This document shows positions 12,984 through 43,715 of a stretch of DNA of 64,000 bases, in pieces. The stretch covers positions 36,410 to 100,409 of the IMG/VR virus record IMGVR_UViG_3300019487_000024. One strand, given 5' to 3'. The notes beneath the pieces were generated by a model, which was given only the letters and a program-made list of their open reading frames with translations, was not told the origin of the DNA and made no database searches. The translations under genes and the position numbers were made by a program. Position 1 is the first letter of the stretch; each line of letters opens with the position of its first letter. This DNA is from a virus.

Positions 12984-13666
12984 AAGTAATCGGAGTTGGC
13001 GGATATGCCCGTTGTGGCAAGGATACCTTCGTTAGCATTGCGAAGAAGATTCTCACAAAGAACAATTACGAACCCCTTCGTGTGGCGTTCGCTGATACTT
13101 TGAAGAATGAAGTTCAAGCCATGTTGAAAGTCAACGACTTTCCGCTCGATGTTTACACCACCGATACAGTGGAAAAGACAAAAATTCGTCCGTTGCTTGT
13201 TTGGTGGGGTTGTGCGAGACGAGATTTGAGTGAAGATGGACTGTATTGGGTAAACGTAGTGGACAAACAACTTCGGTCGGTGAGTGCTACCGATTCAAGA
13301 GACGATGTTATTGTCTTGGTTTCTGATGTACGGTTCCCAAATGAGGCGGCGTGGATTCACAAGAGTTGGGGTGGAGAAGTGATTCATTTGAAACGCTATT
13401 CTGTCCATTGTAGTGCTTCGCCGGTATTTGATCCGGCGACTAAGACTTTTGGAAACTCCGCACCAATCAAGACATTTGATCCCGCTCCAAACGAAGAAGA
13501 ATCCAAAAATGATCCACTCGTTCAAGCAGTTGCAGACGTTTCCGTTTCTTGGGAAAGTCGTGGGATTCCTGCCGGTGGATGCGTTACCGAAGACACATAT
13601 CTTCAAGAGCAAGTTTTGAATGCTCTCAATTCTACTGGAGCATTTAACGGGAAACTATCACTATAA
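12980..13666 (+). CDS. Deoxynucleoside monophosphate kinase (T4 gp1-like)
   Basis: GVGGYARCGKDT P-loop, VAFADTLK, VSDVRFPNE. Confidence 0.85.
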   Translation: MKVIGVGGYARCGKDTFVSIAKKILTKNNYEPLRVAFADTLKNEVQAMLKVNDFPLDVYTTDTVEKTKIRPLLVWWGCARRDLSEDGLYWVNVVDKQLRSVSATDSRDDVIVLVSDVRFPNEAAWIHKSWGGEVIHLKRYSVHCSASPVFDPATKTFGNSAPIKTFDPAPNEEESKNDPLVQAVADVSVSWESRGIPAGGCVTEDTYLQEQVLNALNSTGAFNGKLSL

Positions 13667-13937
13667 GTTGTCCAGCTTCGGTGTAAAAGATGAGTTGCCT
13701 GTCTGTTGTCTTAGATAGGAACTCGTTTTTTAGTCTTGGGACAATGTGTCTGGCTCCATCCAAGTAAAGCTTGGAGCATACAGCATAGAGTTTGGCTTTG
13801 TCTTCTTTTCGGAAGCAATTACAATCAACCGCATAGTCATTGATGCAGTTAATGAGTTGTGTGAAGGTGCTATCCAACCTTGATAATTCATGTGTGCTCA
13901 AGAACCGAGCAAACTCAGTTGGATTTCGGAACTCCAT
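13644..13937 (-). CDS. Hypothetical protein
   Basis: 97-aa ORF, last gene of the - strand block; 3' end overlaps the convergent kinase gene. Confidence 0.7.
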   Translation of the reverse strand: MEFRNPTEFARFLSTHELSRLDSTFTQLINCINDYAVDCNCFRKEDKAKLYAVCSKLYLDGARHIVPRLKNEFLSKTTDRQLIFYTEAGQLIVIVSR

Positions 13938-13940
13938 GCG

Positions 13941-14291
13941 TTACCCCAACAATTTGTCTATGACTGCGTAGATGAACAGTCCTCCCAAGATCACAAGTGG
14001 TAATTGTGCAAACACCCCGATGGAAACCAAGAAGCCTTGAACACAGCACACCAATAAGCCTAGCCACACAGACAGACAAATCGGACAGCTAATCAAACGT
14101 ACGAAGAAGCAGTTGCGGTGCCTTAGAAGGTAAAGACGGTAGGTTAACGACACATCGTTGTATTTCTTATCGTCGTAGTCCTTGTAAAAGGATATAAAAT
14201 TGAGTCTCAGTAGGCGGCAGTATTCCACCCAAGCATCGGTTCTGAACCAAATCAGAAGGAGAAGACCTATAATGGAGATAGACAGTAACAT
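13941..14291 (-). CDS. Membrane protein with a CxxC motif (DUF1360-like)
   Basis: About three hydrophobic segments; LISCPICLSVWLG. Confidence 0.65.
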   Translation of the reverse strand: MLLSISIIGLLLLIWFRTDAWVEYCRLLRLNFISFYKDYDDKKYNDVSLTYRLYLLRHRNCFFVRLISCPICLSVWLGLLVCCVQGFLVSIGVFAQLPLVILGGLFIYAVIDKLLG

Positions 14292-14306
14292 CAACAATAA
14301 ATATCC

Positions 14307-15578
14307 TCAAAGGATAGTAAAGTTGATGTCGTCTATGGGAGGATTTTTTACAATCAGGCTGTCCTGAATGTGGTTTGTAATGCGATTGATGGTAAGAACT
14401 CCGTTGGCACATTCATACTGCCCCGGTTCGGCAGTGTGAATTATGTCATTCAGGTGAAGAATTGTTTGGTCGGTGAAAACATTCGGAGCGGCTTTGGAAA
14501 AATCCAAGTCCAATACGATTTCATCGTCAATTGCCGCCTCCACAAAAACATCTTCATCCAGTCGGTAATACTTTTTGTAAAGCTCCCATTGTAGCTGGTT
14601 AATATCCAAGAGTTGATTTGCAAACTCATGAAGTTGCTTCAATGATGCTTGAAGATTCTGTCGTATTTCTGGATTATCAACGAAAATCCGGCTGAAACGA
14701 AAGTGGTTTTGAAAAATTCCGCTTGCATCATTCCACTTCACGTTTTTGAGGTTTGCTGCTACGGGATATTTGTATTCCTTTGTGGCGTCAAATGCGGTGT
14801 CGTGTTTGAAATGTGGCCACTTTCGTAGAAAGCGAGTCATTTCTACCGTATCGGCTTGTTGTTGAAGCTGTGTGCGTGCTTTTGCCTTCTCAGTCCACCA
14901 TTCAATGCCACGAGAAGATGTGCAAGTGAAGTGATATACAATGGCATTCCACACTTGGTCAATTTTCACGCCCTTCATGGTGAAGCGATATAACAAGTCT
15001 GAATCTTCACGAGACCGGCGAAAGAAAGTGTCATGTCCCCCAATGTCCAACCAATCCTTTTTATACAAACTGAAGGGAGCAAACCAAAATTGGGTCACTC
15101 GGTCGGACTTTTTCTGCTCGGCAAACTTGGAAAAAGCATCCAAGTCAAATTTTTGAGGGTCTAGCCCGAAATCATGGGTAATTTTCTCTGGAGAAGGAGG
15201 ATGAAGCGGCGGTTCAATGCGGGTAGAGGAAACGATTCGTCCGGGAGCCAAATGCTTGCCCAATTCTAAATCATAAAGCGGTCCTATAACCATGTCTGAC
15301 TGCAAATACGACACAAAGTCCGTCTCAGCCATCTCAAACATCAAATTGATGTTTCGAGCATATCCAATAGGGACCGGAAGCGGGTTTATTATAACCTTCA
15401 GGTTAGGAAAGTGCTCTTTTTGAGTCTTGAGAAATCCAACGGTATCTTGATTGTCGTTTTCTACATAAACCAAGATGGGGTGGTTTCGGTGGGAGAGGTT
15501 TTTATAAAGAGAACGAAACAACAACTCTATGTGATGCCGTTCGTTCCTTGCTGTATTGATACAAAATGTGATGTTCAT
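14307..15578 (-). CDS. Glycosyltransferase family 2 (GT-A)
   Basis: ITFCINT, VYVENDNQD, YLQSDM, IGGHDTFF...REDSDL, VYHFTC. Confidence 0.85.
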   Translation of the reverse strand: MNITFCINTARNERHHIELLFRSLYKNLSHRNHPILVYVENDNQDTVGFLKTQKEHFPNLKVIINPLPVPIGYARNINLMFEMAETDFVSYLQSDMVIGPLYDLELGKHLAPGRIVSSTRIEPPLHPPSPEKITHDFGLDPQKFDLDAFSKFAEQKKSDRVTQFWFAPFSLYKKDWLDIGGHDTFFRRSREDSDLLYRFTMKGVKIDQVWNAIVYHFTCTSSRGIEWWTEKAKARTQLQQQADTVEMTRFLRKWPHFKHDTAFDATKEYKYPVAANLKNVKWNDASGIFQNHFRFSRIFVDNPEIRQNLQASLKQLHEFANQLLDINQLQWELYKKYYRLDEDVFVEAAIDDEIVLDLDFSKAAPNVFTDQTILHLNDIIHTAEPGQYECANGVLTINRITNHIQDSLIVKNPPIDDINFTIL

Positions 15579-16441
15579 GCCAATGCTTCCACCATTCGCT
15601 TAATTCCGGCATCCATACCAATCAGGTTTAGGTTTTGACTTCTAAGTCTTCCACCGTCACCCGTGTAAGGATGGTCTTTTTCCACTTGCTTAACAACAAC
15701 ATTGATTGGAACGTTCATTGCCTTGCAAATCTTCGCACCAACGTCGGCAAGGGTTTCTTTATGCCCCATGTCTTGTTCATAAACCAGATTCATGTGACAA
15801 AGCTCTTTAGAGCGAGTTTTCAAAACGTGATCTATGACGACAGCAACATCATCCACAAAAAAGAAATCCATCTTCTTGTTTTTTTCAATCTCAATCGGAA
15901 GTCCTTCCTTTAGGCGAAGGATTGATCGCTTGATAAATCGAAAGTCGGGTTCATCTGGACCAAAACATCCAAACAACCGAAGAAGATATGGTTCGGACAA
16001 TTCCACTTCATCTTCGTTGTACTGTCCCATGCCCAAGGCTCGCTTTGCTATTATGTTTTTGGAGAGTCCGTATAAATCAACCGGCCAAGACTTGTAAAGT
16101 TCTTCTTCGTCCACTTGGTCTATATCAAAGCGTCTGTCAAATTCTGCCCCCGAACCAATAATGATGGTTGGTCTGTAATCATCAATCCAAGTGAGGACTT
16201 CATACATTTTGATGTTGTCCACAAAATCTTGATGTTGGTTTTGGGATGCAAAATGACCTTTGAATCCGGTGTGGACGATAGCAGTTGGGCAATGCTTATT
16301 GAGATACATCATGCATTTCCCAAGGTCGGTCATGTCCAATTCTTGACGGGTTGGTGCCAGAACATCATGCCCAAGACTTCTAAGAGCACGGGCGACGTTT
16401 CGACCAACAAATCCTCCCCCACCAGTGACTAATGTTCTCAT
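15575..16441 (-). CDS. NAD-dependent sugar epimerase/dehydratase/reductase (extended SDR)
   Basis: TGGGGFVG, GSGAEF, YGLSK. Confidence 0.9.
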   Translation of the reverse strand: MRTLVTGGGGFVGRNVARALRSLGHDVLAPTRQELDMTDLGKCMMYLNKHCPTAIVHTGFKGHFASQNQHQDFVDNIKMYEVLTWIDDYRPTIIIGSGAEFDRRFDIDQVDEEELYKSWPVDLYGLSKNIIAKRALGMGQYNEDEVELSEPYLLRLFGCFGPDEPDFRFIKRSILRLKEGLPIEIEKNKKMDFFFVDDVAVVIDHVLKTRSKELCHMNLVYEQDMGHKETLADVGAKICKAMNVPINVVVKQVEKDHPYTGDGGRLRSQNLNLIGMDAGIKRMVEALA

Positions 16442-16914
16442 TTTACAAGGTTCATGTAAGACGGACGACCGTTGAACAGGTAATGGTGCAGCAAATTTTG
16501 CATATCAACCTCGGTGGTCGGCTTGAATAATACCAAATTCTGAAAAGGAGTCAACACCGAAATATCTTCTTCTGCCCAATGGGTATATCCAAGGTATCCG
16601 TAGTCACGATCACGCCCTCCACCGGCAATTTTGATGGGCAAAGACTCGTATTGCATGAAGTTTCGGATGAATTCAAACGGACGAAAGACTGCAAATGAGG
16701 AAATGGAATAGCAAACTGGAAGTTTTCCTTCCATTGCCATACCCGCTGCACAAGCAATCATCAATTGTTCGGCTGAACCTACGTTAAAAAAGCGATTTGG
16801 ATAGGTATCACGAACTTTGTCCCATAAACCATAGCCCATGTCGGCAGTGATAAGCACGATGGAATCGTTCTCACCCATCTTTGTCAGTAATGCGTCAGCA
16901 AATGCACGTCTCAT
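16438..16914 (-). CDS. Transketolase-like beta subunit, pyrimidine-binding domain only
   Basis: LITADMG, RFFNVGSAEQLMIACAAGMA, RPFEFIR, GYTHWAEED. 158 aa; no C-terminal domain. Confidence 0.9.
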   Translation of the reverse strand: MRRAFADALLTKMGENDSIVLITADMGYGLWDKVRDTYPNRFFNVGSAEQLMIACAAGMAMEGKLPVCYSISSFAVFRPFEFIRNFMQYESLPIKIAGGGRDRDYGYLGYTHWAEEDISVLTPFQNLVLFKPTTEVDMQNLLHHYLFNGRPSYMNLVK

Positions 16915-17639
16915 AAAACTTGATATATTAAAGGAATGGTATGAACTCCTCGTTTGAATTTTCTCCAATCATTCTCCCAAATATATTTTACTTTGTACCC
17001 AAGAGATTTCATTTTGGTTAGTTTCTCGTATGTTTTCTTTAACAAGATTCCATATTTCAATTTGGTGTCAGGATTTAGGTCTGTTTGTTTGTATATTTCG
17101 GGATTTCCGTGCCAATAATCACCAAGAAATTCATAAACCGTATTGTTTTCCCGATCATATCCATCCACTTTCTTCTTTTTCCATTTTGGAAGCGAGTAGT
17201 TTGTAGTTTTAATTCCCATCCACAATAAAAAGTCACGTTCAAGTCTTGAAATTTTATGTAAACAAGTAGGACACTTACTACCACGCAAATGATGATATGG
17301 ACTTTGAATAAACGTGCCATGTTTATGACAGATTATTTTTACCTTGTGGTGAGAATGAATATAGTTGACCTTAGAATAATTATATTCATTTTTATGAACT
17401 TTGTTTGCCTTAGTTATAAATTCATAGTTTGAATACAAATATCTTCCGGAACATTTGATACAACCTTTCCCCATTAAATGGTCATTTGGTCTTTGAGAAA
17501 ACATGTGTTGACATGCATTACATTTAATGTCCACTTTTTCTCTGCTTGATTTGTACAACACATGAGAATAATCATATTTTTTGCCATGAATTTTTATGGC
17601 TTTTTCGATAAATTCTTTTGTGTTAGAAAACTTTGGCAT
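16911..17639 (-). CDS. Putative homing endonuclease (two DUF723-like Zn repeats + PD-(D/E)XK/Vsr-like domain)
   Basis: Two repeats of FIxKAxKxH..YxYSxVxY....V.I.C..H..F.Q.P..HL.G..C..C; VDGYDRENNTVYEFLGDYWHG...YIWE. AT-rich; sits between the transketolase halves. Confidence 0.8.
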   Translation of the reverse strand: MPKFSNTKEFIEKAIKIHGKKYDYSHVLYKSSREKVDIKCNACQHMFSQRPNDHLMGKGCIKCSGRYLYSNYEFITKANKVHKNEYNYSKVNYIHSHHKVKIICHKHGTFIQSPYHHLRGSKCPTCLHKISRLERDFLLWMGIKTTNYSLPKWKKKKVDGYDRENNTVYEFLGDYWHGNPEIYKQTDLNPDTKLKYGILLKKTYEKLTKMKSLGYKVKYIWENDWRKFKRGVHTIPLIYQVL

Positions 17640-17702
17640 TACAATGGTTCCATTTATCCAAGTGAGTTTTTACGAAAACTTCCTTACTATCTTTGAATAA
17701 TT

Positions 17703-18344
17703 TTACTTCAGAATTTCAAGTGCAACTGCATATTCTTCCGGGCACATTATTTTGTAGTGAGCATTTTGACCTTTGAGAAACGAAAATTCCTCAGTAGCTT
17801 GTTGTGTGTCTCCAATGCAGGCAATGTTTCCGATGGAAAATGCTGCCAAACGTTTTTGAAGCTTATCATATGGGATTTCGCAATATGCTCCATATCCATT
17901 ATGAACCACGTAAACCTTGATGTTCTTCACGGGATGGTCCGCAATGAATCGAAGGGCTTCCCAAATGACTCCTTCGGCACATTCGCCATCACTTACCATC
18001 ACATGCACGCCACGATTGGGGTTTGCAAGTGCCCGACCTACAGCGGCGGCTAATCCCATACCCAAACTTCCCGTTGAACACCAAAGATGATTCGCTTCGT
18101 CCAGATGTGGGTGCCCGCCATGCTTCTTGAACAACTCCTCAGCATTATGTCCGTGATGTTTTTCCAGCACGACGTATTGTGCCAAAGAAGCATGTCCGTT
18201 AGAAAGGATGAAAATGTCATCCACAGGCTTGTTTCTGAAAATCCAGTCAATGATGTCCACACAGGACAAATAGCTCCCCAAGTGAGAGAGTTTGTTCTTG
18301 TAGGCAATCTCAATGATGCGTTTCTTTAGGTCTTTGTTTACCAT
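17703..18344 (-). CDS. Transketolase-like alpha subunit (TPP-binding)
   Basis: SHLGSYLS, FILSNGHA, STGSLGMG, SDGECAEGVIWEA. Confidence 0.9.
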   Translation of the reverse strand: MVNKDLKKRIIEIAYKNKLSHLGSYLSCVDIIDWIFRNKPVDDIFILSNGHASLAQYVVLEKHHGHNAEELFKKHGGHPHLDEANHLWCSTGSLGMGLAAAVGRALANPNRGVHVMVSDGECAEGVIWEALRFIADHPVKNIKVYVVHNGYGAYCEIPYDKLQKRLAAFSIGNIACIGDTQQATEEFSFLKGQNAHYKIMCPEEYAVALEILK

Positions 18345-19315
18345 ACGAAATTCTTCTTGTAGTATTCCACAATCTCAGGAAGTTTTTGATCTAGGGAACA
18401 TTGATTCTTCCACCCAAGCTTTTTCAGCTTACTATCATCCAAGCTATAACGTACGTCTTGTCCGTCACGGGAATATGTGAAGTCACAGAATTCCAACAAT
18501 CGGTCCATGTCGTTGTCGGGATTGAAATCAACGGTTGACGGATGGAACGTGAGAGCATAGACCTTCTTCACAATGTCAATGTTGAAACATTCTTCTGGAC
18601 CGGAAATGTTGTAAATTTCATTCGTCACACCGGCATCAATGATGGTCATGACAGCATCGGCAGTGTCTTGAGCATGAAGCCATACACGTCTTGGCGATCC
18701 TCCATTGTGCAATGGAACCTTGCTTTCCAAATGAAAGCACTTGCATGTTTTTGGAATGAGTTTTTCGACGTATTGTCCAACACCATAGTTGTTCGTGGGT
18801 CGGACAATAACATACGGAACCTTGAAAGTCCGTGCCCAAGCGAGAATCAACATGTCAGCCGCAGCTTTCGTAGCCGAGTAGGGATTGCTTGGCTTCAACA
18901 AGTCGGTTTCCGTATGAGACCCCGATTCAATGTCTCCATATACTTCATCGGTACTGAAATGAAGCAGGGTGGGCATCTTTAACCGTTTGGTACGGATAAG
19001 ATCGAGAAGGTGCTTTACTCCATTGACATTTGAGTGAAGAAAGGCATCGCTGTTGGTTATGGAATTGTCAACGTGGCTTTCGGCGGCAGTATTGATGACA
19101 TAATCACAATCATAGAGGCTTTCCAAATTGCAAATGTCTTCCTTGATAAACTTGAAGTTTGGACCGTAGCAATGAAAGTCAATCAATCGGTGTGGTTGAG
19201 CCGCATAGGTTACTTTATCGACGCCAATGACATACCACCCACGACGAAGGCAGGCTTCGGTCACATAGGCTCCGATGAATCCAAGGCATCCCGTAACGTA
19301 AACGATTTTTTTCAT
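18338..19315 (-). CDS. rmlB: dTDP-glucose 4,6-dehydratase-like
   Basis: TGCLGFIG, AAESHVDNSI, STDEVYG, PSNPYSATKAAAD, RPTNNYG, EKLIP. Confidence 0.85.
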   Translation of the reverse strand: MKKIVYVTGCLGFIGAYVTEACLRRGWYVIGVDKVTYAAQPHRLIDFHCYGPNFKFIKEDICNLESLYDCDYVINTAAESHVDNSITNSDAFLHSNVNGVKHLLDLIRTKRLKMPTLLHFSTDEVYGDIESGSHTETDLLKPSNPYSATKAAADMLILAWARTFKVPYVIVRPTNNYGVGQYVEKLIPKTCKCFHLESKVPLHNGGSPRRVWLHAQDTADAVMTIIDAGVTNEIYNISGPEECFNIDIVKKVYALTFHPSTVDFNPDNDMDRLLEFCDFTYSRDGQDVRYSLDDSKLKKLGWKNQCSLDQKLPEIVEYYKKNFVW

Positions 19316-19318
19316 AAC

Positions 19319-19969
19319 TTATTGGTAGTTGGCTTCCAGCTCTTCCTGCGTATAAGTATAAGGCAGTTTCTTCACAAACACTTGCCATCCACCATGCAAA
19401 ACTTGAGTGTGTCCGTCATACGCTGTAAGAAAACTGTCCACGGCGAGCTTCGGCTTCTGCTTTTCGTCTGTAGTATGAGCACCCCATCCATAATCATCAA
19501 AAATCAGGATGCCGTTGTCCTTGAGGATGTACCAAGCGAGCACGGCATCTTGCATAACATCAATTGCCAAGTGAGAGCCATCAATGTAAACATAGTCGGC
19601 GAACCCTTTGGTTTGACCGTTATGAGTCAACGAACGGAGAACATCGTAGGAGCTTCCCTTGATGAAATGGATGTTGGGGAAGGAACCAATGTTATGGCGA
19701 AGGCATTCGTTATCATTGATGTCAATGGCATAGTGAACGCTTCCCGGACCATTGGCAATTCTCTGAGCACAAAACACGGCACAGTCGCCATGCAAGACTC
19801 CAATCTCAACACCAACCACGTTTGGTCTGCCTGCAATGAAGGCAAGATGGTTTTGCCAGTCGGGAATCCACTTCTCAAAGAAATTTGAGCCGAAGAACCC
19901 TTCGGGGCGTTTCATGAAGGCTGGATATGTGTAACTTGTGATGTCTCGTTTAAGTGTGTATTCGCTCAT
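19319..19969 (-). CDS. Class I SAM-dependent methyltransferase (Methyltransf_24-like)
   Basis: VEIGVLHG, YVYIDGSH, LKDNGILIFDDY. Confidence 0.85.
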   Translation of the reverse strand: MSEYTLKRDITSYTYPAFMKRPEGFFGSNFFEKWIPDWQNHLAFIAGRPNVVGVEIGVLHGDCAVFCAQRIANGPGSVHYAIDINDNECLRHNIGSFPNIHFIKGSSYDVLRSLTHNGQTKGFADYVYIDGSHLAIDVMQDAVLAWYILKDNGILIFDDYGWGAHTTDEKQKPKLAVDSFLTAYDGHTQVLHGGWQVFVKKLPYTYTQEELEANYQ

Positions 19970-21321: not shown

Positions 21322-21322
21322 A

Positions 21323-33655: not shown

Positions 33656-33656
33656 A

Positions 33657-35023: not shown

Positions 35024-35268
35024 AATGTTCGTTTGTGTAAATCTTTTGAACCCAGCAATTTCAAGACTGAAAGCCACTTCTCTTTTGAATCATACTCGGT
35101 TTCTATGAGTCCCGACCTCAGAGTAAATTCTATAAAATACAAGGTTTCGTGTTCTATCCATGATTGAATCCCAATCAGTTCATCTTTCTTAATAGAGACG
35201 TGTGGAACTCCATTGATCAAGATAGAAATGGTGTACGCCGTAACCTTTATCTCATAGACATCTTTCAT
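35020..35268 (-). CDS. Hypothetical protein
   Basis: 82-aa ORF with ATGA overlaps on both sides. Confidence 0.65.
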   Translation of the reverse strand: MKDVYEIKVTAYTISILINGVPHVSIKKDELIGIQSWIEHETLYFIEFTLRSGLIETEYDSKEKWLSVLKLLGSKDLHKRTL

Positions 35269-36255: not shown

Positions 36256-36971
36256 TTGAAATGGTCTTGAAAATACGTCAAGTCTTCAGGAGTGCCAAGA
36301 CCCCACATTTTATTGATGTGGAATATCTTCACTTTCTTTCCATCGCCGATTGCTTCATTATACACCGGAGCCACATAGAACTCGTTGTTAACTCGCACGT
36401 TCTTGGCAATCATTTGTTCGGCATACTTGACATAATCCGAACCTTTGCTCCAATAATAAATTCCAACTGTGGCTTCGTTACTAATGACTTCCTTTTCCTT
36501 CACTTCTGTCACGAATCCATTGTCATCCAATCTCACATAGCTCCACTTAGGATGGCTGTTGTTGAAGGTAAGAATACCACCATCAATCTTGTCTCCTTGC
36601 ATGGAATACATGAACTTATTCCAATCGAAATTTTCAATATATTGGTCTGAATTTGCAATTAACAATGGTTCATCATTATTGATGAATTTCTTGGCGAGTA
36701 GGGTTGTGCAAGCAGCACCCTCAGTTAAATGGTCAACCTCAACGATATTACATTTAGCGATTCTGTTTAGCAATTGTTTGAAATGATATTGCTGAGTATG
36801 TTCTTTTCTGACTATAAATGTATGAATGGCGGGAATACCAAGGTTTTCAACAACAACTTGTATCATTGGTTTATCATTAAAATTCTTAACAGCAATCAAA
36901 GGTTTTGGAAAAGAATAACCTGCCTTTTCAAACCTACTGCCTGCTCCTGCACATGGTATTAAGACTTGCAT
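36252..36971 (-). CDS. Sugar-phosphate nucleotidyltransferase
   Basis: LIPCAGAGSRF...PKPLI, TEGAACT, IANSDQ, KWSY, EKEVIS, EFYVAPVYN, GLGTPEDL. Confidence 0.88.
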   Translation of the reverse strand: MQVLIPCAGAGSRFEKAGYSFPKPLIAVKNFNDKPMIQVVVENLGIPAIHTFIVRKEHTQQYHFKQLLNRIAKCNIVEVDHLTEGAACTTLLAKKFINNDEPLLIANSDQYIENFDWNKFMYSMQGDKIDGGILTFNNSHPKWSYVRLDDNGFVTEVKEKEVISNEATVGIYYWSKGSDYVKYAEQMIAKNVRVNNEFYVAPVYNEAIGDGKKVKIFHINKMWGLGTPEDLTYFQDHFK

Positions 36972-38155
36972 ATTTGTTTCTTTAGTCGTTCAAGTTCAGT
37001 TTTTGTTTCTTGCCACAATTGATAAAAGTCGTCACCATGTCCGGGATGATGTTGTTTTGTGGTCAACAGTTTTAGATTTTCTAGGCGATTGTCATCTTTT
37101 TTTCCATTCTTATGGTGGACAATCTCATGTTTTTCGAGTGCTCGGCGTAGATGAAGCGACATAACTAATCTATGTTCAAAAACATATTCGGGTTTTCCTT
37201 CACTTTTCCACGAAATCTTGTGGGCTATTTCTTTTTGTTCGTATGGTAATTCGGAAACATTTAATACAACGTATCCATGTGTGGAACGTTTATTTGGGTT
37301 GTATAAAATGTGTTTTTTTCCATGTTGGAATGCAGACGGACAACAAGATTGACATTTTCCCGTGAATACTCCTTTTTGAATTTGAGTTATAATGTTGTGA
37401 TTATTGACGAATCTTGATGTATTGCAGGATGGACATAAAACTGTTGATTGGTAATGTCCTTTGGCTTGATTGGAATTTTTTTGAAGAAGCAATTCTGAAA
37501 ATTGAGAATACTTCTGCATACATTCATAAAGTTTATTGATAGCCTCAATAAACCGCCCCACTCTTGTCAAATTGACATCGGAGGGAGACTGTATAATCAT
37601 TACTTCCGCTCCACTATTCGTGGCTGCGGCGATACCGTTAGGAGAGTCTTCCAAAATCAAAACTTCAGATGGTTGAAGGTTCAAAGTCCGAATAGCCGAA
37701 ATATAAATCTCTGGATTTGGTTTTGGTTGTTGGACTTGTTCGTTTGTTAAAACAATGTCAAATATATTTGCACAGTGTAATTTTTCAAGAAGAATGTTCG
37801 TTGTTTTTTGAATACTATTTGTGCAAAGTCCAACTTTCAATCCTCGATCACGCAAATTACAAATAACCTTTTTTATTCGGCTGTCACATTTGATATTTGC
37901 AAGTAATTTTTCAGTTAGTTCTTGTTTTCTATGTTCTATTTGAGAATTCCATTCTGATGGAAGTCCTTTGTATAAGTTTAGAAATTCGAGTTTTTTCTTC
38001 GTGGATAATCCTTCGTAGGTTTTCGTTTGTTCTGAGGGAGTGATGACATATGACGAGGAATACTCTGATAGTGCATAATTCAATGCTGTAAAGTGGAGTT
38101 CTTTTGTTGAAGAAATCAATACTCCATCAAGGTCGAATAAAATGGCTTTAATCAT
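36959..38155 (-). CDS. HAD-family phosphatase fused to a Zn-finger/HNH endonuclease
   Basis: FDLDGVL, CTNS, KPNPEIY, LEDSPNG, then CPSC...CQSC and EHRLVM...VHHKNGKKDDNRLENL, all in one frame. AT-rich. Confidence 0.85.
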   Translation of the reverse strand: MIKAILFDLDGVLISSTKELHFTALNYALSEYSSSYVITPSEQTKTYEGLSTKKKLEFLNLYKGLPSEWNSQIEHRKQELTEKLLANIKCDSRIKKVICNLRDRGLKVGLCTNSIQKTTNILLEKLHCANIFDIVLTNEQVQQPKPNPEIYISAIRTLNLQPSEVLILEDSPNGIAAATNSGAEVMIIQSPSDVNLTRVGRFIEAINKLYECMQKYSQFSELLLQKNSNQAKGHYQSTVLCPSCNTSRFVNNHNIITQIQKGVFTGKCQSCCPSAFQHGKKHILYNPNKRSTHGYVVLNVSELPYEQKEIAHKISWKSEGKPEYVFEHRLVMSLHLRRALEKHEIVHHKNGKKDDNRLENLKLLTTKQHHPGHGDDFYQLWQETKTELERLKKQICKS

Positions 38156-38213: not shown

Positions 38214-38930
38214 TTATTTGAATACCGAATGTCCTTGATTTTCTGCTTGGGTGAAAACTTGATTGTATCTCAAATTGGTTTTGACTTGAGTCTCAATAGT
38301 TTTGTCATGATAGAGAGCATATTCTTCGTCTTGTGGCAAACAGACATAGGTAAGGTATCCTTCAATTTTCTCGTGCAGTCTTCGGTTGAAACTGATACGA
38401 GGATACTCTCGTTTGAATATGCGAAATTGAAAATCCGGGTAGTTCACCACAGGACGCTTGAAAGTAGGAGAAACAGTCAGCTTCCAACCCCATTGGGCTG
38501 CGTGTTGTGGAGTAACTCCCCGGAAATCGTTTATGCGTGGAACGGCATAGGCTTCCATCGTTGGATTTGCCTCAAGAAGAGCGTGGAGATTCTCTCCTAT
38601 TAAGGCATCGGGAGGATATTCGTCTCCATCTATCTGGAAAATGAAGTCTCCCGACGATCTTTCTATACCAAAGTTCTTGTGGGCACCGTAATTGCGGTCT
38701 AATGGATGTTCGAGAACCTTGCAGGTTTTCTTTTCAATCATCTCATAGCCCATTTTGACGGCAAACTCTGAGAGAATGTTCTTTGTCTCTTGGTTATCCT
38801 TCGCCTCACTGTCAATCAATACAATCACTTCGTCGTCAGAGTTTTTGACGACCGTGCCGACGATGCTAAGAAGTTTTCTCAGCGTATCCGTCTCTGTACT
38901 AACAGTTATTAAGTACGATACTTTTGGCAT
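38214..38930 (-). CDS. Glycosyltransferase family 2
   Basis: VSYLITV, EVIVLID, AHKNFG, IFQIDGDE, VPRIN, PDFQFRI, LHE. Confidence 0.85.
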   Translation of the reverse strand: MPKVSYLITVSTETDTLRKLLSIVGTVVKNSDDEVIVLIDSEAKDNQETKNILSEFAVKMGYEMIEKKTCKVLEHPLDRNYGAHKNFGIERSSGDFIFQIDGDEYPPDALIGENLHALLEANPTMEAYAVPRINDFRGVTPQHAAQWGWKLTVSPTFKRPVVNYPDFQFRIFKREYPRISFNRRLHEKIEGYLTYVCLPQDEEYALYHDKTIETQVKTNLRYNQVFTQAENQGHSVFK

Positions 38931-39618
38931 AACTAAAATTGGATTTGTCCGGTATTCGTATGAACTTACACTTGAGAAGGGCTTTTATGTTTTCTTCACG
39001 AACAATGTCTTTTTTTACCCGCTCTTTGTTTTTGAAATGGTGTGTTCTTTCATCCCACTCAATTACCATGTTTTTTGATGATTCGTAGTAATCTACCCAA
39101 TATCCATATTCAGATATGTAGAACTCACCACCATTTAAGGCATGAACGCCATTCCATCCCATTTCCGAGTTCAAATAATCAAAAAACTGACAGGCAAGTT
39201 TGTTGTAGTTTGGTCTATACTTTCCATCATTTCCCATCAACATTCGCATCTTTCGTATTGACTCCGTTCTTTTTCTGATACATTCTTGTCCTCGTTCTGT
39301 TTTGTGAAAGTTAATCAATGCAGTTGAATGGGATTTTCTTCGTGCATTAGACCACACTCTTCCTAAATTATAAGTGTTTCCTGTATTTACTCTTTTGAGA
39401 GTTTCCAAATTTGCACATGGTTTCCCTTTTCTATGACTTCTATTACCACTATGAGCACAACTTTTACATGGATGGTTATATTGTTTTGCTCTCCACAAAT
39501 TTTGTGATGAAGAGTATTCTACAACTCTATTACAATCTGGACAATTTCTGCTCCATCTCTTTTTGTTTGTAGTATTTTTTAAGTTTGTCTCGCTTGATTT
39601 TTTTACTATGTCGGTCAT
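38899..39618 (-). CDS. Putative homing endonuclease (Zn finger + NUMOD-like + PD-(D/E)XK/Vsr-like)
   Basis: CPDC...CKSC, GGEFYI...YWVDYY...VIEWDE..HH...DIVRE...FIRI. AGGAG RBS; AT-rich; overlaps the start of the GT2 gene. Confidence 0.75.
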   Translation of the reverse strand: MTDIVKKSSETNLKNTTNKKRWSRNCPDCNRVVEYSSSQNLWRAKQYNHPCKSCAHSGNRSHRKGKPCANLETLKRVNTGNTYNLGRVWSNARRKSHSTALINFHKTERGQECIRKRTESIRKMRMLMGNDGKYRPNYNKLACQFFDYLNSEMGWNGVHALNGGEFYISEYGYWVDYYESSKNMVIEWDERTHHFKNKERVKKDIVREENIKALLKCKFIRIPDKSNFSYAKSIVLNNC

Positions 39619-39730: not shown

Positions 39731-41350
39731 TTACAGAAGTTGGAATGTCTCTTCCAATGTTTTTTGAATATCAATTATGGGCATTTCTGTATTAAACATC
39801 ATCTTAGATGCTTTCACATTAGATAGATTTGAATCAAGTCGGCTCATAATTATAGTTTTCCCTCGCAATTGTGAAGCTATATCCTTCAAATTTTCAAATT
39901 TGATACTTTTCTTTTCTTCTCCTGTATTTTCAAATTTTATATTTACGGGAGACTTGTTAATAGCAACAATGGTTGTTTGGGAAGTTTCTTTTTCCTTAGC
40001 AGGTTCGGCCTGTTTGATAGGAACATTCTGTCCATTTGGAGCAGTTGCTCCCGGCAAGTTCAGCTTCTTCAATTTCGGAAGAACTATGGTTTGTTCTGTG
40101 GCGAACTTTGGAACATACTTGTCCAAAAGAGGATGAAAAATCTTGTCCATTGCCTCGTTGCTGAATTTCTCAGCGTTTTCGGCACGAAGCTTTTCAGCAT
40201 CTTCCAGAATCTTGCCGTTGTAATTGTTGAAGTAATGCTTCATCTTCAATTGGGCAGCGGCATAATCCACATCAAACCAACGAGCATCCTTCACAAACCA
40301 ATCGTTAACCGCTTCATCTGGAATTGGAACCAAGTTACCTTCAAAGAACTTGGCATACTTAGGATTCAAGAAATCCAAGTGCCCGCTCCAATTTGGAGCA
40401 AGCAACGGCTTACCACTCAAGGTAGAAAGCAACAGCGGATGCCCATAGCCTTCGCCGTGAGTAAAGCTGGCATGAACCTTGACCTTATCGTGGTTGAATA
40501 AGGCATTCATTTCCACGTCATCAAGCTCTCCGTGGAGAAGATAGACGTTTGGTAGGGTTGCGTTTGGAAGTTGTGATTTGACCATGTTCGTTACGTCGTT
40601 GATCTTGTTGATGCAATCGTAACGGTCCATAATGCAAATTTGTGCTCCGCTCGTCTTGAGAACCAAGCAGGGAGGATTCGAAACATTGGCAAATGCTTTC
40701 AAGAAGGTTTCAATCAAATGTCCGATAGCCTTTCGGTCAGCACGCATGTTTCCGTTCGTCCATTGACCGACAAACAAGAAGGCAAATGACTCTGGAATGG
40801 ATTGCAATGCTTCTTCCACAGATGCAACCTTTTCGTCGGTCTTTTTGTAAATGCGAGTGTCGGCTCCCCACGGAACAATTTCCATAGGAGTGCGAACAAC
40901 CAATTCTTCTGCCGCACCATTGGGAAGTCGTTTGTTGTAATTTGCGTGAGCAAACACGTCCTTGACGTGCTTGGATAGAACAAAGTTCACATTCATGCGG
41001 TTCAATCCCTCAATCCATTCTGGGCGTGGAACGGTAGTCTCAATACCAGCAGTCATTCCGATGTTGAACTTGGCGGGATTGGCATATTCATTCGGAATGG
41101 TCATTTGAATGAAGACTTCTGGTTGACGAGACAATGGACCTTTGAGAATCTTGTCCAATAGTGCCTTGCCTTCGGGGTCTCTTACTTCCGAGTCCAAATT
41201 CTTCTTGCTGCAAGCACCCCAAACTGTCGGGGCAATGTGCAAGTCAAACTTGTCGTAACGATAAAGACTCTTGGCAACAGATAGTGCCCAATCGCCATAA
41301 CCAGAACGGGTCCAAATAGGACTTTGTAATACACAGATAGGTTTGCTCAT
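39731..41350 (-). CDS. GT-B (GT4-like) glycosyltransferase
   Basis: TRSGYG, FLFVGQW, RKAI, THGEGYGHPLL...GKPLLAPNWSGHLDFL. AT-rich C-terminal extension. Confidence 0.85.
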   Translation of the reverse strand: MSKPICVLQSPIWTRSGYGDWALSVAKSLYRYDKFDLHIAPTVWGACSKKNLDSEVRDPEGKALLDKILKGPLSRQPEVFIQMTIPNEYANPAKFNIGMTAGIETTVPRPEWIEGLNRMNVNFVLSKHVKDVFAHANYNKRLPNGAAEELVVRTPMEIVPWGADTRIYKKTDEKVASVEEALQSIPESFAFLFVGQWTNGNMRADRKAIGHLIETFLKAFANVSNPPCLVLKTSGAQICIMDRYDCINKINDVTNMVKSQLPNATLPNVYLLHGELDDVEMNALFNHDKVKVHASFTHGEGYGHPLLLSTLSGKPLLAPNWSGHLDFLNPKYAKFFEGNLVPIPDEAVNDWFVKDARWFDVDYAAAQLKMKHYFNNYNGKILEDAEKLRAENAEKFSNEAMDKIFHPLLDKYVPKFATEQTIVLPKLKKLNLPGATAPNGQNVPIKQAEPAKEKETSQTTIVAINKSPVNIKFENTGEEKKSIKFENLKDIASQLRGKTIIMSRLDSNLSNVKASKMMFNTEMPIIDIQKTLEETFQLL

Positions 41351-41568
41351 ATTTCTAATTCTCTTGGTTCAACTCCAAAATTGTCTTTCAACAGCTTGAA
41401 CACATTGGTCAAGCATTCATCGCACAAGTGAACTTCTACACCAGTCAAGTCGTGGGAACTTCCATACCAACTTGCTGTTTTGAGTTCGGAAAAGCATTCT
41501 CTTTCAGGATGTTTATCACAGAGATACTTGGCATCTTCCAAAACTCCTTGTGTGATCACTTTCTTCAT
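41347..41568 (-). CDS. Small Cys-containing hypothetical protein
   Basis: CDKH...WYGSSHD...HLCDEC. Confidence 0.7.
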   Translation of the reverse strand: MKKVITQGVLEDAKYLCDKHPERECFSELKTASWYGSSHDLTGVEVHLCDECLTNVFKLLKDNFGVEPRELEI

Positions 41569-42155
41569 TGTCCTTGCTTTTCCTTCATTTCTTCGCTGTA
41601 ACGCTTCTTGATAGGAATCCCACCGCCCTTGTTGTAAAGTTCGGTAATAGATGCTCCCGGAATTCCTTCCACGATGGTCTTGAAGGCATTCAGTGCTCCA
41701 TCAGCAGTAGAAACCTGTGGAACTGGTTTCTTGACATCGGTGCTTCCAAATCCACCTTCGGAACGAACACTTGCGGGAAGTTCTTCGGCATCTTGGAAAC
41801 CAGCCGCCGTGTAGTTCTCAAAGATGATTTGAGCAATCTTATCTCCCACGGCAATCTTCTTATCGACATTGCCAAGATTGATAAGGATAACACCTACGTC
41901 GCCACGATAATCTTCATCAATGACTCCTGCCATTGTATCAAGACCGTCTTTGTAAGCTAGACCACTGCGAGGAGCAATGCGTCCATAAAGACCAGAAGGG
42001 ATAGCGACTGAGATTCCAGTTTTGAAGAGTTTTCGTTCAAGCGGCTTCAACGTGTATTCTTCAATTGAATACAAGTCATAGCCTGCCGCAAAGTCACTTC
42101 CACGAGTAGGAGTCTTTGCTAACGGATTCGTTTTCTTGATCGGAATTGTAACCAT
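41565..42155 (-). CDS. dut: Trimeric dUTPase
   Basis: AAGYDL, GRIAPRSGLA, GVIDEDYRG, IAQII, RSEGGFGST. Start ATG 42155; about 50-aa tail after motif V. Confidence 0.95.
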   Translation of the reverse strand: MVTIPIKKTNPLAKTPTRGSDFAAGYDLYSIEEYTLKPLERKLFKTGISVAIPSGLYGRIAPRSGLAYKDGLDTMAGVIDEDYRGDVGVILINLGNVDKKIAVGDKIAQIIFENYTAAGFQDAEELPASVRSEGGFGSTDVKKPVPQVSTADGALNAFKTIVEGIPGASITELYNKGGGIPIKKRYSEEMKEKQGQ

Positions 42156-42168
42156 AAGTTTGCCCACA

Positions 42169-42197
42169 ATACTATCAGAACTTATCCAATAGTGCAA
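42169..42197 (-). promoter_or_regulatory. Sigma70-type promoter for dut
   Basis: TTGCAC-17bp-TAGTAT with an extended TG and an upstream A-tract. Confidence 0.65.
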
Positions 42198-42224
42198 CTT
42201 TTTATACGACTTTGTAGTCTTTTT

Positions 42225-43715
42225 TTATACCAAGACTGCATCCGCTCGTTTTTGAAGAGCATCCTTGTCAATCTTGGGAATTTCAAAGCCCATGCCATCT
42301 TTCATTGTGTTGCCGACATAATCTTTGACCGAGAACACACTGAACTTCTTGGGCTTCGTCCAGTTCTTGAAAACGTATTCCATGCCAGTGATGAAAGTCT
42401 CACCCATGTTCTTGGCATTCAATCCACCTTCGCCAAGTGCCCAATCACGACCTACTTGACCGCACTTGGTTCGTTTTTCGTCGCCCATAAGATACCAATA
42501 CATGAATCCCTCAGCACAATCTTCCCACTTAGCCAAGTCATCAAAGATGTAAGGCGTAGGAATGCTTCCTTGAATAAGACGAGTTACCGGCCACACAGGA
42601 TATGCCCATGCACCACACGTTTTATACTTTCCAACATTGTTGCTGCCAAAGTCAGCAGAGAACTCCACGGGCTTGCCTTCGTCGTCCACCTGACCAATTT
42701 GATCTTGAAGACCACCCGTGACCGTAGCAATGATGGGCGTGCCGCACATGATACTTTCCGCAATGGAAAGACCAAATCCTTCGTTGGAAGAAAGATTGAC
42801 TGTTACGTCGGCAACGTTATACATCAAATTCATTTCTTGAGGAATTAACTTGCCCGGTGAGAAGATGATGTTATATTCGGGGCAAAGAGCTTCCTTGACA
42901 GCCAATAGATTGGTGCCAGCTTCGTGCATGATTTCGGTGTGAAGAACCAAAGTGCATTGAGCAGCTTCTTCTTTTGGCAGGTTGTCGCAGAACTGACGAT
43001 ATGCCAACATAATGTTGCTCGTGCGTTTGCGATGAACGTTGCGGCTGTTATAGAAGATGACGAACTTGGCTTCTTTCTTTCCATTGAATAGACGCTTCTT
43101 GAATTCAACCAATTTTGGGTCGTCTTTTGCAATCGGGAAGAATGTCTCAGCATCAATTCCATGCGGAACATAATGTATCAAAGAACGTTCGTTCATCGGT
43201 CCTTCGTCATTCACGGTGACACAGTTCTTTGGAGACAAGACATATTTGTTGATGTTCATCGTCTGCTTACTGATTGAAAAGAGAGCGTCGCAGCTTTCAT
43301 AAAACGGACGATTGTACATTGGGTATGGCACGTCATCCCAAATGTTCAAGTAAGTCAGTGGCATGGCAGAACGCACTTGTTTTTCCAGTGCATAGAGCCA
43401 TCCCCAAAAGCGAGGGTCGGTAAAGTGAAGAATGGCATTTGGCTTTTCCATAGCAATGACTTGGAAGAGCAACTGCTCATTGCCATATCCGTCAATTGGA
43501 TACAGCTTGACATAGGCATCCTTCATCTTTTTCAGTTCATTGGTGGACTGAGAAAGATCGAATACCTTTCCTTTTTCTGGATGGCTAATGGCACCGGCAA
43601 GCTGACACCAGTCATACTTGTGAACCGTGCTAAGAACCAACTCACGGGACATCGTTGCGATGCCCGAATTCATACGAAGATCATCCGACAGAAGAAGAAT
43701 TTTTGGCTTTGCCAT
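42225..43715 (-). CDS. GT-B (GT4-like) glycosyltransferase
   Basis: ILLLSDD...SGIAT, FTDPRF, VPHGID, SRNVHRK, SSNEGFGLSIAESIMCGTPIIATVTGGLQDQ. Confidence 0.9.
   Translation of the reverse strand: MAKPKILLLSDDLRMNSGIATMSRELVLSTVHKYDWCQLAGAISHPEKGKVFDLSQSTNELKKMKDAYVKLYPIDGYGNEQLLFQVIAMEKPNAILHFTDPRFWGWLYALEKQVRSAMPLTYLNIWDDVPYPMYNRPFYESCDALFSISKQTMNINKYVLSPKNCVTVNDEGPMNERSLIHYVPHGIDAETFFPIAKDDPKLVEFKKRLFNGKKEAKFVIFYNSRNVHRKRTSNIMLAYRQFCDNLPKEEAAQCTLVLHTEIMHEAGTNLLAVKEALCPEYNIIFSPGKLIPQEMNLMYNVADVTVNLSSNEGFGLSIAESIMCGTPIIATVTGGLQDQIGQVDDEGKPVEFSADFGSNNVGKYKTCGAWAYPVWPVTRLIQGSIPTPYIFDDLAKWEDCAEGFMYWYLMGDEKRTKCGQVGRDWALGEGGLNAKNMGETFITGMEYVFKNWTKPKKFSVFSVKDYVGNTMKDGMGFEIPKIDKDALQKRADAVLV

Follow-up and report, generated by a model that had tools for sequence, protein, structure and literature searches.

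A phage-borne glycan assembly locus with a conserved glycosyltransferase frame and a swappable sugar cassette

Loci for bacterial O-antigens and capsules have conserved ends and a hypervariable middle, and encode RfbH, RmlB/C, DegT, HddA and glycosyltransferases (GTs) of families GT2, GT4 and GT11. Comparable gene sets occur in viruses. The fibril glycosylation clusters of the Megavirinae (Mimivirus, Megavirus) are virus-encoded, comprise up to 33 genes, combine rare bacterial-type nucleotide-sugar pathways with soluble GTs and differ in content between clades; their glycans are put together in the cytoplasm, independently of the host's export machinery (PMC10117803). In the cyanomyoviruses P-SSM2, S-SCSM1 and S-SCSM2R, which are T4-like and aquatic, glycan genes number 22-24; many of them encode GTs (GT2, GT10, GT11, GT1), others NDP-sugar epimerases or RmlC, and their proposed roles are to change the host surface or to protect DNA (PMC12801897). 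In mycobacteriophages, soluble phage GTs glycosylate capsid and tail-tube subunits (Freeman et al. 2023, as cited in PMC12619734). Here we describe a locus of a tailed phage that resembles each of these systems in such features.

Layout and flanks of the island

We analysed a window of 64,000 nucleotides from a large, uncultured phage (IMG/VR virus record IMGVR_UViG_3300019487_000024). The first-pass annotation had described about 30 tightly overlapping, co-directional genes with about seven GT genes. We found 35 ORFs at 13644-43715, all on the minus strand, with a coding fraction of 97%. Of the 34 junctions, 27 are overlapping or abutting, 14 with an overlap of 4 nt. Seven GT genes encode eight GT domains, assigned with Pfam, PHROG or AF2/Foldseek. 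The island further contains, among others, two nucleotide-sugar modules, two methyltransferases (as claimed earlier; both are Methyltransf_24) and a B12 radical-SAM enzyme; three of its ORFs are of the selfish endonuclease type.

Genes on the plus strand bracket the island. To the left (11938-13666) are the clamp-loader A subunit (PF16790, 8e-10), a 178-aa ORF and a dNMP-kinase-like gene with weak matches to DNMK and P-mevalo_kinase; a DnaB-like helicase and RNR also lie on this side. The right flank (43904-50407) begins with two ORFs without assignment, followed by the family-B DNA polymerase PolB (46027-48624; Pfam), a sliding-clamp candidate (48672-49436) and a clamp-loader ATPase (49400-50407; Pfam). 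PolB is 40% identical to that of Microcystis phage Mel-JY01 and 46-52% identical to those of IMG/VR relatives. The replication genes named by the first-pass annotation were confirmed for the helicase, polymerase and clamp loader; the clamp had no Pfam match and is a candidate by its homology to the ORF after PolB in relatives.

Two related virus contigs, G001 and G002, share the left flank (clamp-loader A, 178-aa ORF, dNMP-kinase-like gene) and carry 21-kb and 26-kb islands bracketed by the same phage genes. Apart from the mobile ORFs, the G+C content of the island is that of its flanks. This synteny shows that the island is a resident, phage-borne glycan assembly locus. All its enzymes are soluble. 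It sits in the replication module, away from structural genes. The late-type motif TATAAATA, which precedes late genes, is enriched: 8 copies occur in the window versus 1.3 expected, none of them within 6.5-53.4 kb. Because the motif is absent from this interval, the sequence suggests that the island is expressed early or middle.

Sugar modules and glycosyltransferases

Matches to Pfam and NCBIfam bear out the claimed nucleotide-sugar synthesis enzymes. Module A (15575-21450) encodes an RfbH/E1-type 3-dehydrase (19966-21450; NF011936, 427.7 bits against a cut-off of 423), a Methyltransf_24 protein (19319-19969), an RmlB-like 4,6-dehydratase (18338-19315; TIGR01181, 280 bits, below the cut-off), a transketolase-like pair A (17703-18344 and 16438-16968) and an SDR (15575-16441). 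Pair A is split by a mobile DUF4379 Zn-finger ORF (16911-17639) with a paralog at G000 27357-28055, and its beta subunit lacks the Transketolase_C domain. The nine ORFs of Module B (21323-29507) encode, in transcription order, a Gmd/LegB-like 4,6-dehydratase (28551-29507), a split transketolase-like pair B (27790-28554 and 26852-27793), the B12 radical-SAM enzyme (25316-26848), a DegT aminotransferase/dehydratase (24148-25326), an RmlC-like epimerase (23636-24151), an HddA-like GHMP kinase (22686-23639), a small cytidylyl/adenylyl-transferase (22267-22689) and an SDR (21323-22270). The cassette is syntenic in a Parcubacteria MAG contig, at 57-71% identity, and partly so in a Chthoniobacteraceae MAG contig. 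Pathway assignments are at the family level; RfbH alone passed an equivalog cut-off.

A further set includes a beta-phosphoglucomutase-family HAD protein with a C-terminal HNH endonuclease domain (36959-38155; HAD_2 1.4e-30, HNH_3 9e-8, TIGR02009 5e-30) and a sugar-1-phosphate nucleotidyltransferase (36252-36971; PF00483 1.6e-11; RmlA-/HddC-like, below cut-offs), which in relatives co-occurs with the HAD and GDPD-like ORFs. A small cupin (35265-35585; Cupin_2 1.9e-4, phrog_24762 7e-33) and the second methyltransferase (33657-34388; PF13578 1.3e-8) lie nearby. The claimed SGNH protein (34385-35077) has GNSH and DxxH motifs and may be an SGNH/GDSL-like hydrolase or O-acyl enzyme, but its Lipase_GDSL_2 match (E=0.028) was under the cut-off, and searches of PDB sequences gave no match. 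Similarly, the protein called GDPD-like (32881-33336) contains the HRG..EN motif, while its PHROG family (phrog_34507, 2.7e-23) has no annotated function and the motif is the sole basis for the name. This ORF is 212 aa as called; its true start is likely Met-62, giving a protein of about 150 aa (relatives, 147-153 aa).

The remaining ORFs are small, weakly assigned or mobile. A 230-aa protein (35563-36255) had no match in Pfam, PHROG or PDB, and an 82-aa ORF (35020-35268) had none in searches that included Pfam and PHROG. The Zn-finger, endonuclease-like ORF at 38899-39618, which is not a glycan gene, lies in a low-GC stretch, shares its C terminus with the ORF at G000 27357-28055 and has no homolog in related islands. 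The sole membrane-type ORF of the block encodes a 118-aa protein with three hydrophobic segments (13941-14297; hydropathy, weak DUF1360 match) that is kept in G001, G002 and two other loci (L011 and L012) and absent from Flavobacterium phage immuto. The last gene, a 97-aa ORF (13644-13937), has positional homologs in G001 and G002 (26-29% identity).

Four of the GT genes form a frame. The first gene of the island encodes a 496-aa GT4 of the GT-B type (42225-43715; Glycos_transf_1 3.7e-12), fused in this phage; most relatives encode its N and C halves as separate ORFs. Its nearest Atlas clusters contain viruses only, and its best PDB sequence match is chlorovirus B736L (3oy2, 1.5e-9). In 95 of 97 loci the acceptor-binding N-domain is more conserved than the C-domain, which is the donor domain. 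At the same end are a 539-aa GT-B (39731-41350; phrog_2170 glycosyltransferase, 8.6e-7; virus-only Atlas GT1 clusters, 0.98), with homologs in 75 of 80 related loci, and a small 238-aa GT2 of the GT-A type (38214-38930; PF00535 5.6e-9), with homologs in 50 of 80 loci and in immuto and Mel-JY01. At the far end is a 423-aa GT2-like protein (14307-15578; PF00535 weak) whose AF2 model has a confident N-terminal domain and a GT-A fold. Foldseek matched it to the GT-A domains of K4 chondroitin polymerase, heparosan synthase and ppGalNAc-T, and the final GT of the immuto island shares 32% identity with it across 417 aa. A dUTPase-family gene (41565-42197; PF00692 2.7e-35) lies inside the frame in this clade only; it adjoins PolB in Mel-JY01, and its product is 25-30% identical to positional homologs.

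The other three GTs are adjacent: a 312-aa GT10-like, fucosyltransferase-type protein (29504-30442) whose weak PF00852 match (7.9e-5) is sub-threshold at 22.8 bits against the Pfam cut-off of 23.9; a 512-aa two-domain GT2-GT11 protein (30367-31905; PF01531 5.5e-22, PF00535 7.6e-12); and the product of the "341-aa" ORF (31898-32884), predicted by AF2 to be a GT-B glycosyltransferase (pLDDT 88.2). In Foldseek the latter resembled BshA, SenB and GT4 enzymes (TM about 0.62-0.68), and 12 homologs occur among related islands.

These families suggest a possible chemistry. In Module A, the RmlB-like dehydratase and the RfbH/E1-type dehydrase would convert an NDP-hexose to a 4-keto-3,6-dideoxy sugar, which the thiamine-dependent transketolase-like pair may branch before the reductase and methyltransferase act. 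In Module B, a heptose or hexose phosphate would be activated by the HddA-like kinase and the nucleotidyltransferase, then dehydrated, epimerised, aminated or deoxygenated, branched and C-methylated. The third small set (the beta-phosphoglucomutase-type HAD, nucleotidyltransferase, cupin and GDPD-motif protein) may supply another activated unit. The eight GT domains could then assemble a cytoplasmic oligosaccharide, decorated with O-methyl and possibly O-acyl groups, on an acceptor conserved throughout the phage lineage.

Recurrence of the frame and absence of export functions

The frame recurs in immuto, in Mel-JY01 and in at least 580 IMG/VR stretches; hundreds of aquatic phages have this type of locus, in which the enzyme frame is fixed and the sugar cassette can be exchanged. 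Dozens of IMG/VR loci have the canonical order PolB-clamp-loader-GT4-GTB539-GT2-[variable]-GT423. Genes inside the frame are highly variable: 421 downstream ORFs from 48 loci fell into 157 families, 109 of them restricted to a single locus. The tail sheath is homologous among immuto, Mel-JY01 and this phage. The earlier description of the block as unusually large holds within the lineage, where 29.4 kb compares with 9-11 kb among loci whose far-end GT fell inside the fetched flank. It is less striking among viruses generally: large phage glycan clusters are already known, and published sets reach 22-24 such genes in cyanomyoviruses (PMC12801897) and 33 in Megavirinae (PMC10117803).

As the first-pass annotation had noted for the block, we found no initiating transferase, Wzx flippase or Wzy polymerase in Pfam searches of the whole 100-kb contig, which represents about 28% of the genome (CheckV estimate). 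No ORF of the contig exceeds three hydrophobic segments. Nor did multi-pass membrane proteins turn up in the contig, in the related loci (1.04 Mb) or in immuto, whose genome is complete, and about 80 related loci and the immuto genome contained no export, ligase or initiating genes. GTs that work on undecaprenyl-linked acceptors are also soluble or peripheral; a route through the host is therefore compatible with the missing membrane proteins.

The acceptor and comparison with known systems

We tentatively favor cytoplasmic glycosylation of a protein that the phage itself encodes, probably one of the virion; remodeling of lipid-linked host surface glycans is nearly as likely. Several features point to a phage protein: the age and phage-borne nature of the island; the virus-specific frame GTs, present in phages of two host phyla (immuto and Mel-JY01); the conservation of the GT4 N-domain over the donor domain; the conserved frame with its variable cassette; the lack of membrane machinery in the sequences searched; and the chlorovirus GT that is the closest solved relative of GT4. 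Against it are the location in the replication module, where the late-type motif is absent; the lack of a Ser/Thr-rich acceptor tract in the 100 kb; and the sugar types, since 3,6-dideoxyhexose, deoxyheptose and fucosyltransferase-like GTs are typical of O-antigens. These sugars, the GT10/GT11-like enzymes and the early/middle module fit host-envelope remodeling, in which phage GTs would extend or replace an undecaprenyl-PP-linked O-antigen or capsule intermediate at the cytoplasmic face, relying on the initiating transferase, exporter and ligase of the host, and the altered cell surface would block superinfection or re-adsorption of progeny. Module B is a bacterial cassette also present in MAGs, conservation of the GT4 N-domain could have an equally good explanation in a universal lipid-PP-sugar primer, and cassette hypervariability fits an arms race against competing phages that read O-antigens. 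However, the virus-only frame GTs keep 38-47% identity between phages whose hosts, Bacteroidota and Cyanobacteria, have different envelopes and export routes, the related loci and the immuto genome supply no export, ligase or initiating gene, and 30 kb of rare-sugar chemistry goes far beyond the needs of known exclusion systems. Precedents exist on both sides: the Megavirinae clusters of 6-33 genes that make clade-specific fibril glycans (PMC10117803) and mycobacteriophage virions glycosylated by phage GTs (Freeman 2023, as cited in PMC12619734); and, for the envelope, the LPS/cell-wall gene clusters of cyanomyoviruses, for which this role is the standing hypothesis (PMC12801897).

Other products appear unlikely. 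The island might make a soluble glycoconjugate, a glycolipid or a glycosylated host protein, or be partly decaying cargo without a coherent product, as the three selfish ORFs, the truncated pair-A beta subunit beside one of them and several ORFs of no assignable function could indicate; yet 97% of the island is coding, its junctions are mostly coupled, family matches of the enzymes are full-length and hundreds of contigs retain the frame. Phage DNA, which had been proposed as a glycan substrate, is an improbable target. A hydroxylated or hydroxymethylated pyrimidine that carries an oligosaccharide to evade restriction would have parallels in the adduct of about 1 kDa on YerA41 thymidine (PMC9023294) and in polyarabinosyl-5hoC of RB69 and DLP3 (PMC13326640), and would suit the replication-module location, the abutting dNMP-kinase-like gene and the dUTPase-family gene, although the latter is a clade-specific insertion. 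DNA is disfavored because the cultured phage immuto, which has a homologous frame and island, has canonical dA, dC and dT in its virion DNA, only dG being replaced, by fdPreQ1 (LC-UV-MS; PMC10516641). Moreover, the 100 kb encodes no ThyA homolog, TET/JBP or C5-methyltransferase; G005 and G006 do have a ThyA gene, but G001, G002 and G007 lack one. An assembly chimera, or host DNA joined onto a phage contig, could be imagined from the similarity of Module B to a bacterial cassette; it is ruled out because phage genes bracket the islands on both sides in independent contigs, and the virus-only frame GTs and flank-like composition also argue against it.

If the acceptor is indeed a phage protein, the variable cassette would give each phage its own type of glycan, comparable to the clade-specific fibril clusters of giant viruses. 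Among the closest systems are those of immuto and Mel-JY01, whose frames are homologous and in the same order (identities, respectively, of 47% and 45% for GT4, 35% and 32% for GT2, and 32% and 27% for the terminal GT2-like protein; 38% for the GT-B). Each of those islands spans about 6-11 kb and has a single cassette of the aminotransferase/epimerase type, whereas the 29.4-kb island has three sugar modules and has been rearranged, so that it lies between clamp-loader A and PolB on the other strand. Compared with bacterial O-antigen and capsule loci, it lacks an initiating phosphoglycosyltransferase, Wzx, Wzy and Wzm/Wzt, and has phage replication flanks. Mycobacteriophage systems (PMC12619734) consist of only one or two GTs beside structural genes, use host sugar nucleotides, and are without sugar pathways or a hypervariable cassette. 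In marine cyanomyoviruses, tblastn detected no homologs of the frame GTs; here the genes lie together in a single contiguous, operon-like block, and their chemistry includes branched-sugar and radical-SAM steps. The Megavirinae are eukaryote-infecting giant viruses whose fibril glycans have been shown chemically, and the virus here is a tailed phage with a predicted glycan; the genes are not homologous, and the island is distinguished by its fixed GT frame with a swappable middle.

Gene content and layout of the island

The window makes up the right-hand 64 kb of one virus record of 100,409 bp, for which CheckV estimates a completeness of 28%. Between positions 13644 and 43715 we identified 35 open reading frames (ORFs), every one of them in minus orientation. 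With three starts trimmed to fit homologs, the coding fraction of this island was 97% and 27 of its 34 junctions overlapped or abutted (14 of the 34 by 4 nt), which bears out the co-directional, tightly overlapping block described in the first-pass annotation. The G+C content of the island (0.43-0.47) is that of its flanks, falling to 0.37-0.39 solely at 16-18 kb and 36-40 kb. These dips coincide with selfish elements that have no role in glycan synthesis: a DUF4379 Zn-finger ORF that splits a transketolase-like pair (pair A), a related ORF at 38899-39618, and an HNH domain fused to a HAD enzyme. The DUF4379 family is endonuclease-like and multi-copy, with one minus-strand copy between the subunits of pair A (16911-17639), a second between two frame glycosyltransferases (38899-39618), and plus-strand copies at 27357-28055 and 33590-33841 of further DNA with its own numbering (G000).

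The predicted sugar genes, all on the minus strand, lie in three sets. Module A (15575-21450) encodes an RfbH/E1-type 3-dehydrase, which at 427.7 bits against a cut-off of 423 is the sole island enzyme above an equivalog cut-off; an RmlB-like 4,6-dehydratase; a Methyltransf_24 enzyme; the split transketolase-like pair A; and an SDR. Module B (21323-29507) encodes a Gmd/LegB-like dehydratase, a second, full-length transketolase-like pair (pair B), a B12-binding radical-SAM enzyme, a DegT-family enzyme, an RmlC-like epimerase, an HddA-like kinase, a small cytidylyl/adenylyl-transferase, and an SDR. The third set (32881-38155) comprises a β-phosphoglucomutase-type HAD enzyme, a nucleotidyltransferase, a cupin, a second Methyltransf_24 enzyme, a weak SGNH-like ORF, and an ORF of ~150 aa with a GDPD-type HRG..EN motif.

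At 176 aa, the beta subunit of pair A (16438-16968, minus) is without the Transketolase_C domain present in pair B. Pair A may be damaged, its short beta subunit adjoining a mobile ORF. Long Logan contigs encode transketolase subunits 79-93% identical to those of the island. The order of module B (dehydratase, transketolase-like pair, B12 radical-SAM enzyme, DegT enzyme, HddA-like kinase) recurs with 57-71% identity in a bacterial-type locus (L025:7360-15985) of the Parcubacteria MAG QZIP01000015.1, a 1.4-Mb assembly with no matching PolB.

The longest non-coding stretch in the island spans 320 bp (33337-33656). It contains the best minus-strand sigma-70-like match (TTGACG, 18 nt, TATAAT; 33405-33376), which may be an internal promoter ahead of the GDPD-motif ORF (32881-33336). 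Scans for sigma-70 promoters and terminators yielded no more matches than expected from shuffled sequence and were uninformative.

Outside the island, the motif TATAAATA, whose complement TATTTATA lies just upstream of plus-strand starts, has eight copies in the window against 1.3 expected. Its sites (6451-6478 and 53383-63517 in the window; 4492-32011 in G000) are placed ahead of late genes, with none in the 6.5-53.4 kb interval. The motif probably marks late promoters or initiation regions in this phage. The flanks also contain a ribonucleotide reductase large subunit gene with a C-terminal TSCPD domain (3009-5642, plus); an SNF2-family helicase gene with an intein, whose Hint and homing-endonuclease domains lie between helicase motifs (59085-61934, plus); and a T5orf172/MUG113 (GIY-YIG-related) ORF, the lone minus-strand gene amid plus-strand genes (54043-54702, minus), which is likely a mobile element.

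A virus-specific glycosyltransferase frame

The island contains seven glycosyltransferase (GT) genes with eight domains, in agreement with the first-pass estimate of about seven. Four of them, GT4 (42225-43715), a 539-aa GT-B enzyme (39731-41350), a small GT2 (38214-38930), and a far-end 423-aa GT2-like protein (GT423; 14307-15578), make up a frame that encloses a cassette of other genes. The frame GTs belong to virus-only families, with the 539-aa protein falling in virus-only GT1 clusters, while the cassette genes have bacterial relatives. Within the cassette, a 341-aa ORF (31898-32884) has no family match and a predicted GT-B fold (pLDDT 88). A phmmer search of the PDB gave no match for five ORFs of unknown function, for the 423-aa GT, or for a profile of the 539-aa GT. 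The predicted structure of the 423-aa protein has a GT-A fold; we dropped this fold as a clue to the acceptor, as it resembles polysaccharide synthases and polypeptide GalNAc-transferases alike.

PolB of the window is 40% identical to that of the cultured Microcystis phage Mel-JY01 and 46-52% identical to those of IMG/VR contigs. Two related virus contigs, G001 and G002, carry islands of 21 kb or 26 kb inside the same flanks as the window. One flank consists of clamp-loader A, a dNMP-kinase-like gene, and ORFs of 97 and 118 aa; on the other side are the small GT2, the 539-aa GT, dUTPase, and GT4, followed by PolB. The middles differ. With the same phage flanks bracketing islands in both contigs, the sequence evidence is that the island is not a chimera, the artifact that the first-pass annotation had named as a possible refutation.

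The cultured phages Mel-JY01 and immuto, a Flavobacterium phage, share a tail sheath with the phage of the window. A megablast search of the block against cultured phages gave no match. In a pattern scan, at least 580 IMG/VR stretches encoded GT4 relatives; among the best 80 of these loci, the 539-aa GT was present in 75, clamp-loader A in 57, and the small GT2 in 50. The usual co-directional order in relatives is PolB, clamp, clamp loader, GT4, GT-B, GT2, variable genes, and GT423. In the clade of the window the island is rearranged and on the opposite strand, and the frame is linked to clamp-loader genes, as in immuto-like islands. The 421 ORFs downstream of GT4 in 48 loci formed 157 families, 109 of which were confined to one locus. 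Where the terminal GT fell inside the fetched 10 kb, islands measured 9-11 kb, compared to 29.4 kb here, a comparison biased to short islands because longer ones exceed the fetched flank. GT4 is a single 496-aa protein in the window (42225-43715, minus), G002 (locus L014), and immuto; most relatives and Mel-JY01 have one ORF for its N-domain and another for its C-domain (loci compared, L016:6237-7223 with 7231-7761, and L001:30244-31735).

Candidate acceptors of the glycan

The first-pass annotation had seen no flippase, polymerase, or polyprenyl initiating transferase, and profile searches of the 100-kb contig uphold this. Neither the initiating transferases PF02397 (WbaP/Bac_transf) and PF00953 (WecA/Glycos_transf_4) nor PF01943 (Polysacc_synt) and PF04932 (Wzy_C) matched, while control genomes did. 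Within the island, hydrophobic segments occur in the 118-aa ORF alone (13941-14297; three segments), no ORF of the 100-kb contig has more than three, and 1.04 Mb of related loci contained a single four-segment ORF. A gtrABC-type seroconversion set was also missing: no GtrA Pfam match was obtained at E ≤ 0.01, and all GTs are soluble. The 118-aa ORF was ruled out as a GtrA-like flippase, having no family match and not being conserved in immuto. A 381-aa membrane coiled-coil protein upstream of immuto GT4 was ruled out as part of the system, being present in just one other locus.

A scan of the 100-kb contig for Ser/Thr-rich acceptor tracts gave spurious frames only and none in real ORFs. In 40 of 48 related islands (e.g., L042:5398-5865 and L054:12717-13160), a conserved ORF of ~150 aa for a Zn-ribbon protein (gp179 of immuto) separates the 539-aa GT from the small GT2. 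This protein could be an adaptor or acceptor in those islands. An HMM search found it absent from the genome contig of the window, and we rejected it as the carrier or acceptor here.

We tentatively favor glycosylation of the virion or another phage protein as the function of the island. An acceptor intrinsic to the phage is suggested because the frame is specific to viruses and persists in phages of both Bacteroidota and Cyanobacteria; because, in 95 of 97 loci, GT4 is better conserved in its acceptor-binding half than in its donor half; because membrane machinery is absent from both the 1.04 Mb of related loci and the complete immuto genome; and because, among solved structures, a chlorovirus enzyme is nearest to GT4. 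A more specific model, in which we place slightly less confidence, is that across an aquatic T4-like (immuto-like) lineage the fixed frame primes a phage protein, and a swappable bacterial rare-sugar cassette makes the virion glycan distinct for each phage. The cassette, which here would encode branched 3,6-dideoxyhexose and modified heptose pathways, would be exchanged horizontally.

Remodeling of the host surface is an alternative of almost equal likelihood. The conserved acceptor domain would be explained equally well by a universal lipid-PP-sugar primer, and peripheral GTs can do without membrane segments. The island sits within the replication module, the late-type motif is missing around it, and its sugars resemble those of O-antigens. 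Modification of DNA seems very unlikely, although its size would be no obstacle: the 1-kDa adduct of YerA41 shows that oligosaccharide-size DNA adducts exist (PMC9023294), and we therefore dropped adduct size as an argument. The argument against DNA is now based on immuto, which has a homologous island and yet yielded canonical dA, dC, and dT when its virion DNA was analyzed by LC-UV-MS, with dG replaced by the non-sugar base fdPreQ1 (PMC10516641). ThyA-type, TET, and C5-methyltransferase genes were also not found in the 100-kb contig, ~28% of the genome; immuto and two more distant relatives do encode ThyA.

Significance and relationship to known systems

Large phage glycan gene sets and GT-made virion glycans are already known. 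Cyanomyoviruses carry sets of 22-24 genes with putative function (PMC12801897), and mycobacteriophages are known to glycosylate their virions with GTs of their own (work cited in PMC12619734). We found no literature description of a locus built like this one, in which virus-specific GTs frame a hypervariable cassette of bacterial type throughout a lineage of aquatic phages, or of a cassette with this chemistry. Literature searches likewise yielded no report of chemically identified glycans on virion proteins of this lineage.

If the virion reading is true, the island would be the phage equivalent of an O-antigen locus and, for tailed phages, the first system to carry out oligosaccharide glycosylation autonomously and to supply its own sugar nucleotides. 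Tailed phages would then resemble giant viruses in making the glycans of their surface themselves, out of rare bacterial sugars, with a bearing on phage stability, adsorption, grazing, and host recognition, and the locus, given the 580 or more IMG/VR stretches, would mark phage "glycotypes" in aquatic viromes. Should the host surface be what the glycan alters, the island would offer the first concrete mechanism for the old puzzle of phage LPS genes. On either reading the question is directly testable, as both cultured phages carry the frame, and the cassettes are a source of uncharacterized, putative sugar-branching and C-methylating enzymes.

Like bacterial Wzx/Wzy- or ABC-dependent O-antigen and capsule loci, the island clusters NDP-sugar genes with GTs and has a variable middle between conserved ends, but two initiating-transferase families, Polysacc_synt, and Wzy_C are unmatched in the 100-kb contig. 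Whereas gtrABC seroconversion uses the GtrA flippase, GtrB, and a membrane GtrC, the island has soluble GTs and one small three-segment ORF. In mycobacteriophages, GT genes lie beside capsid and tail-tube genes and C-terminal tails are glycosylated; here, the GT genes lie in the replication module and the real ORFs of the contig lack Ser/Thr-rich tracts. Megavirinae have clade-specific sets of up to 33 genes whose glycans are shown on fibrils (PMC10117803), while the glycan here is predicted from gene content. As in Megavirinae- and chlorovirus-type autonomous virion glycosylation, virus-encoded NDP-sugar pathways and soluble GTs share one cluster, the content of which varies by clade or strain.
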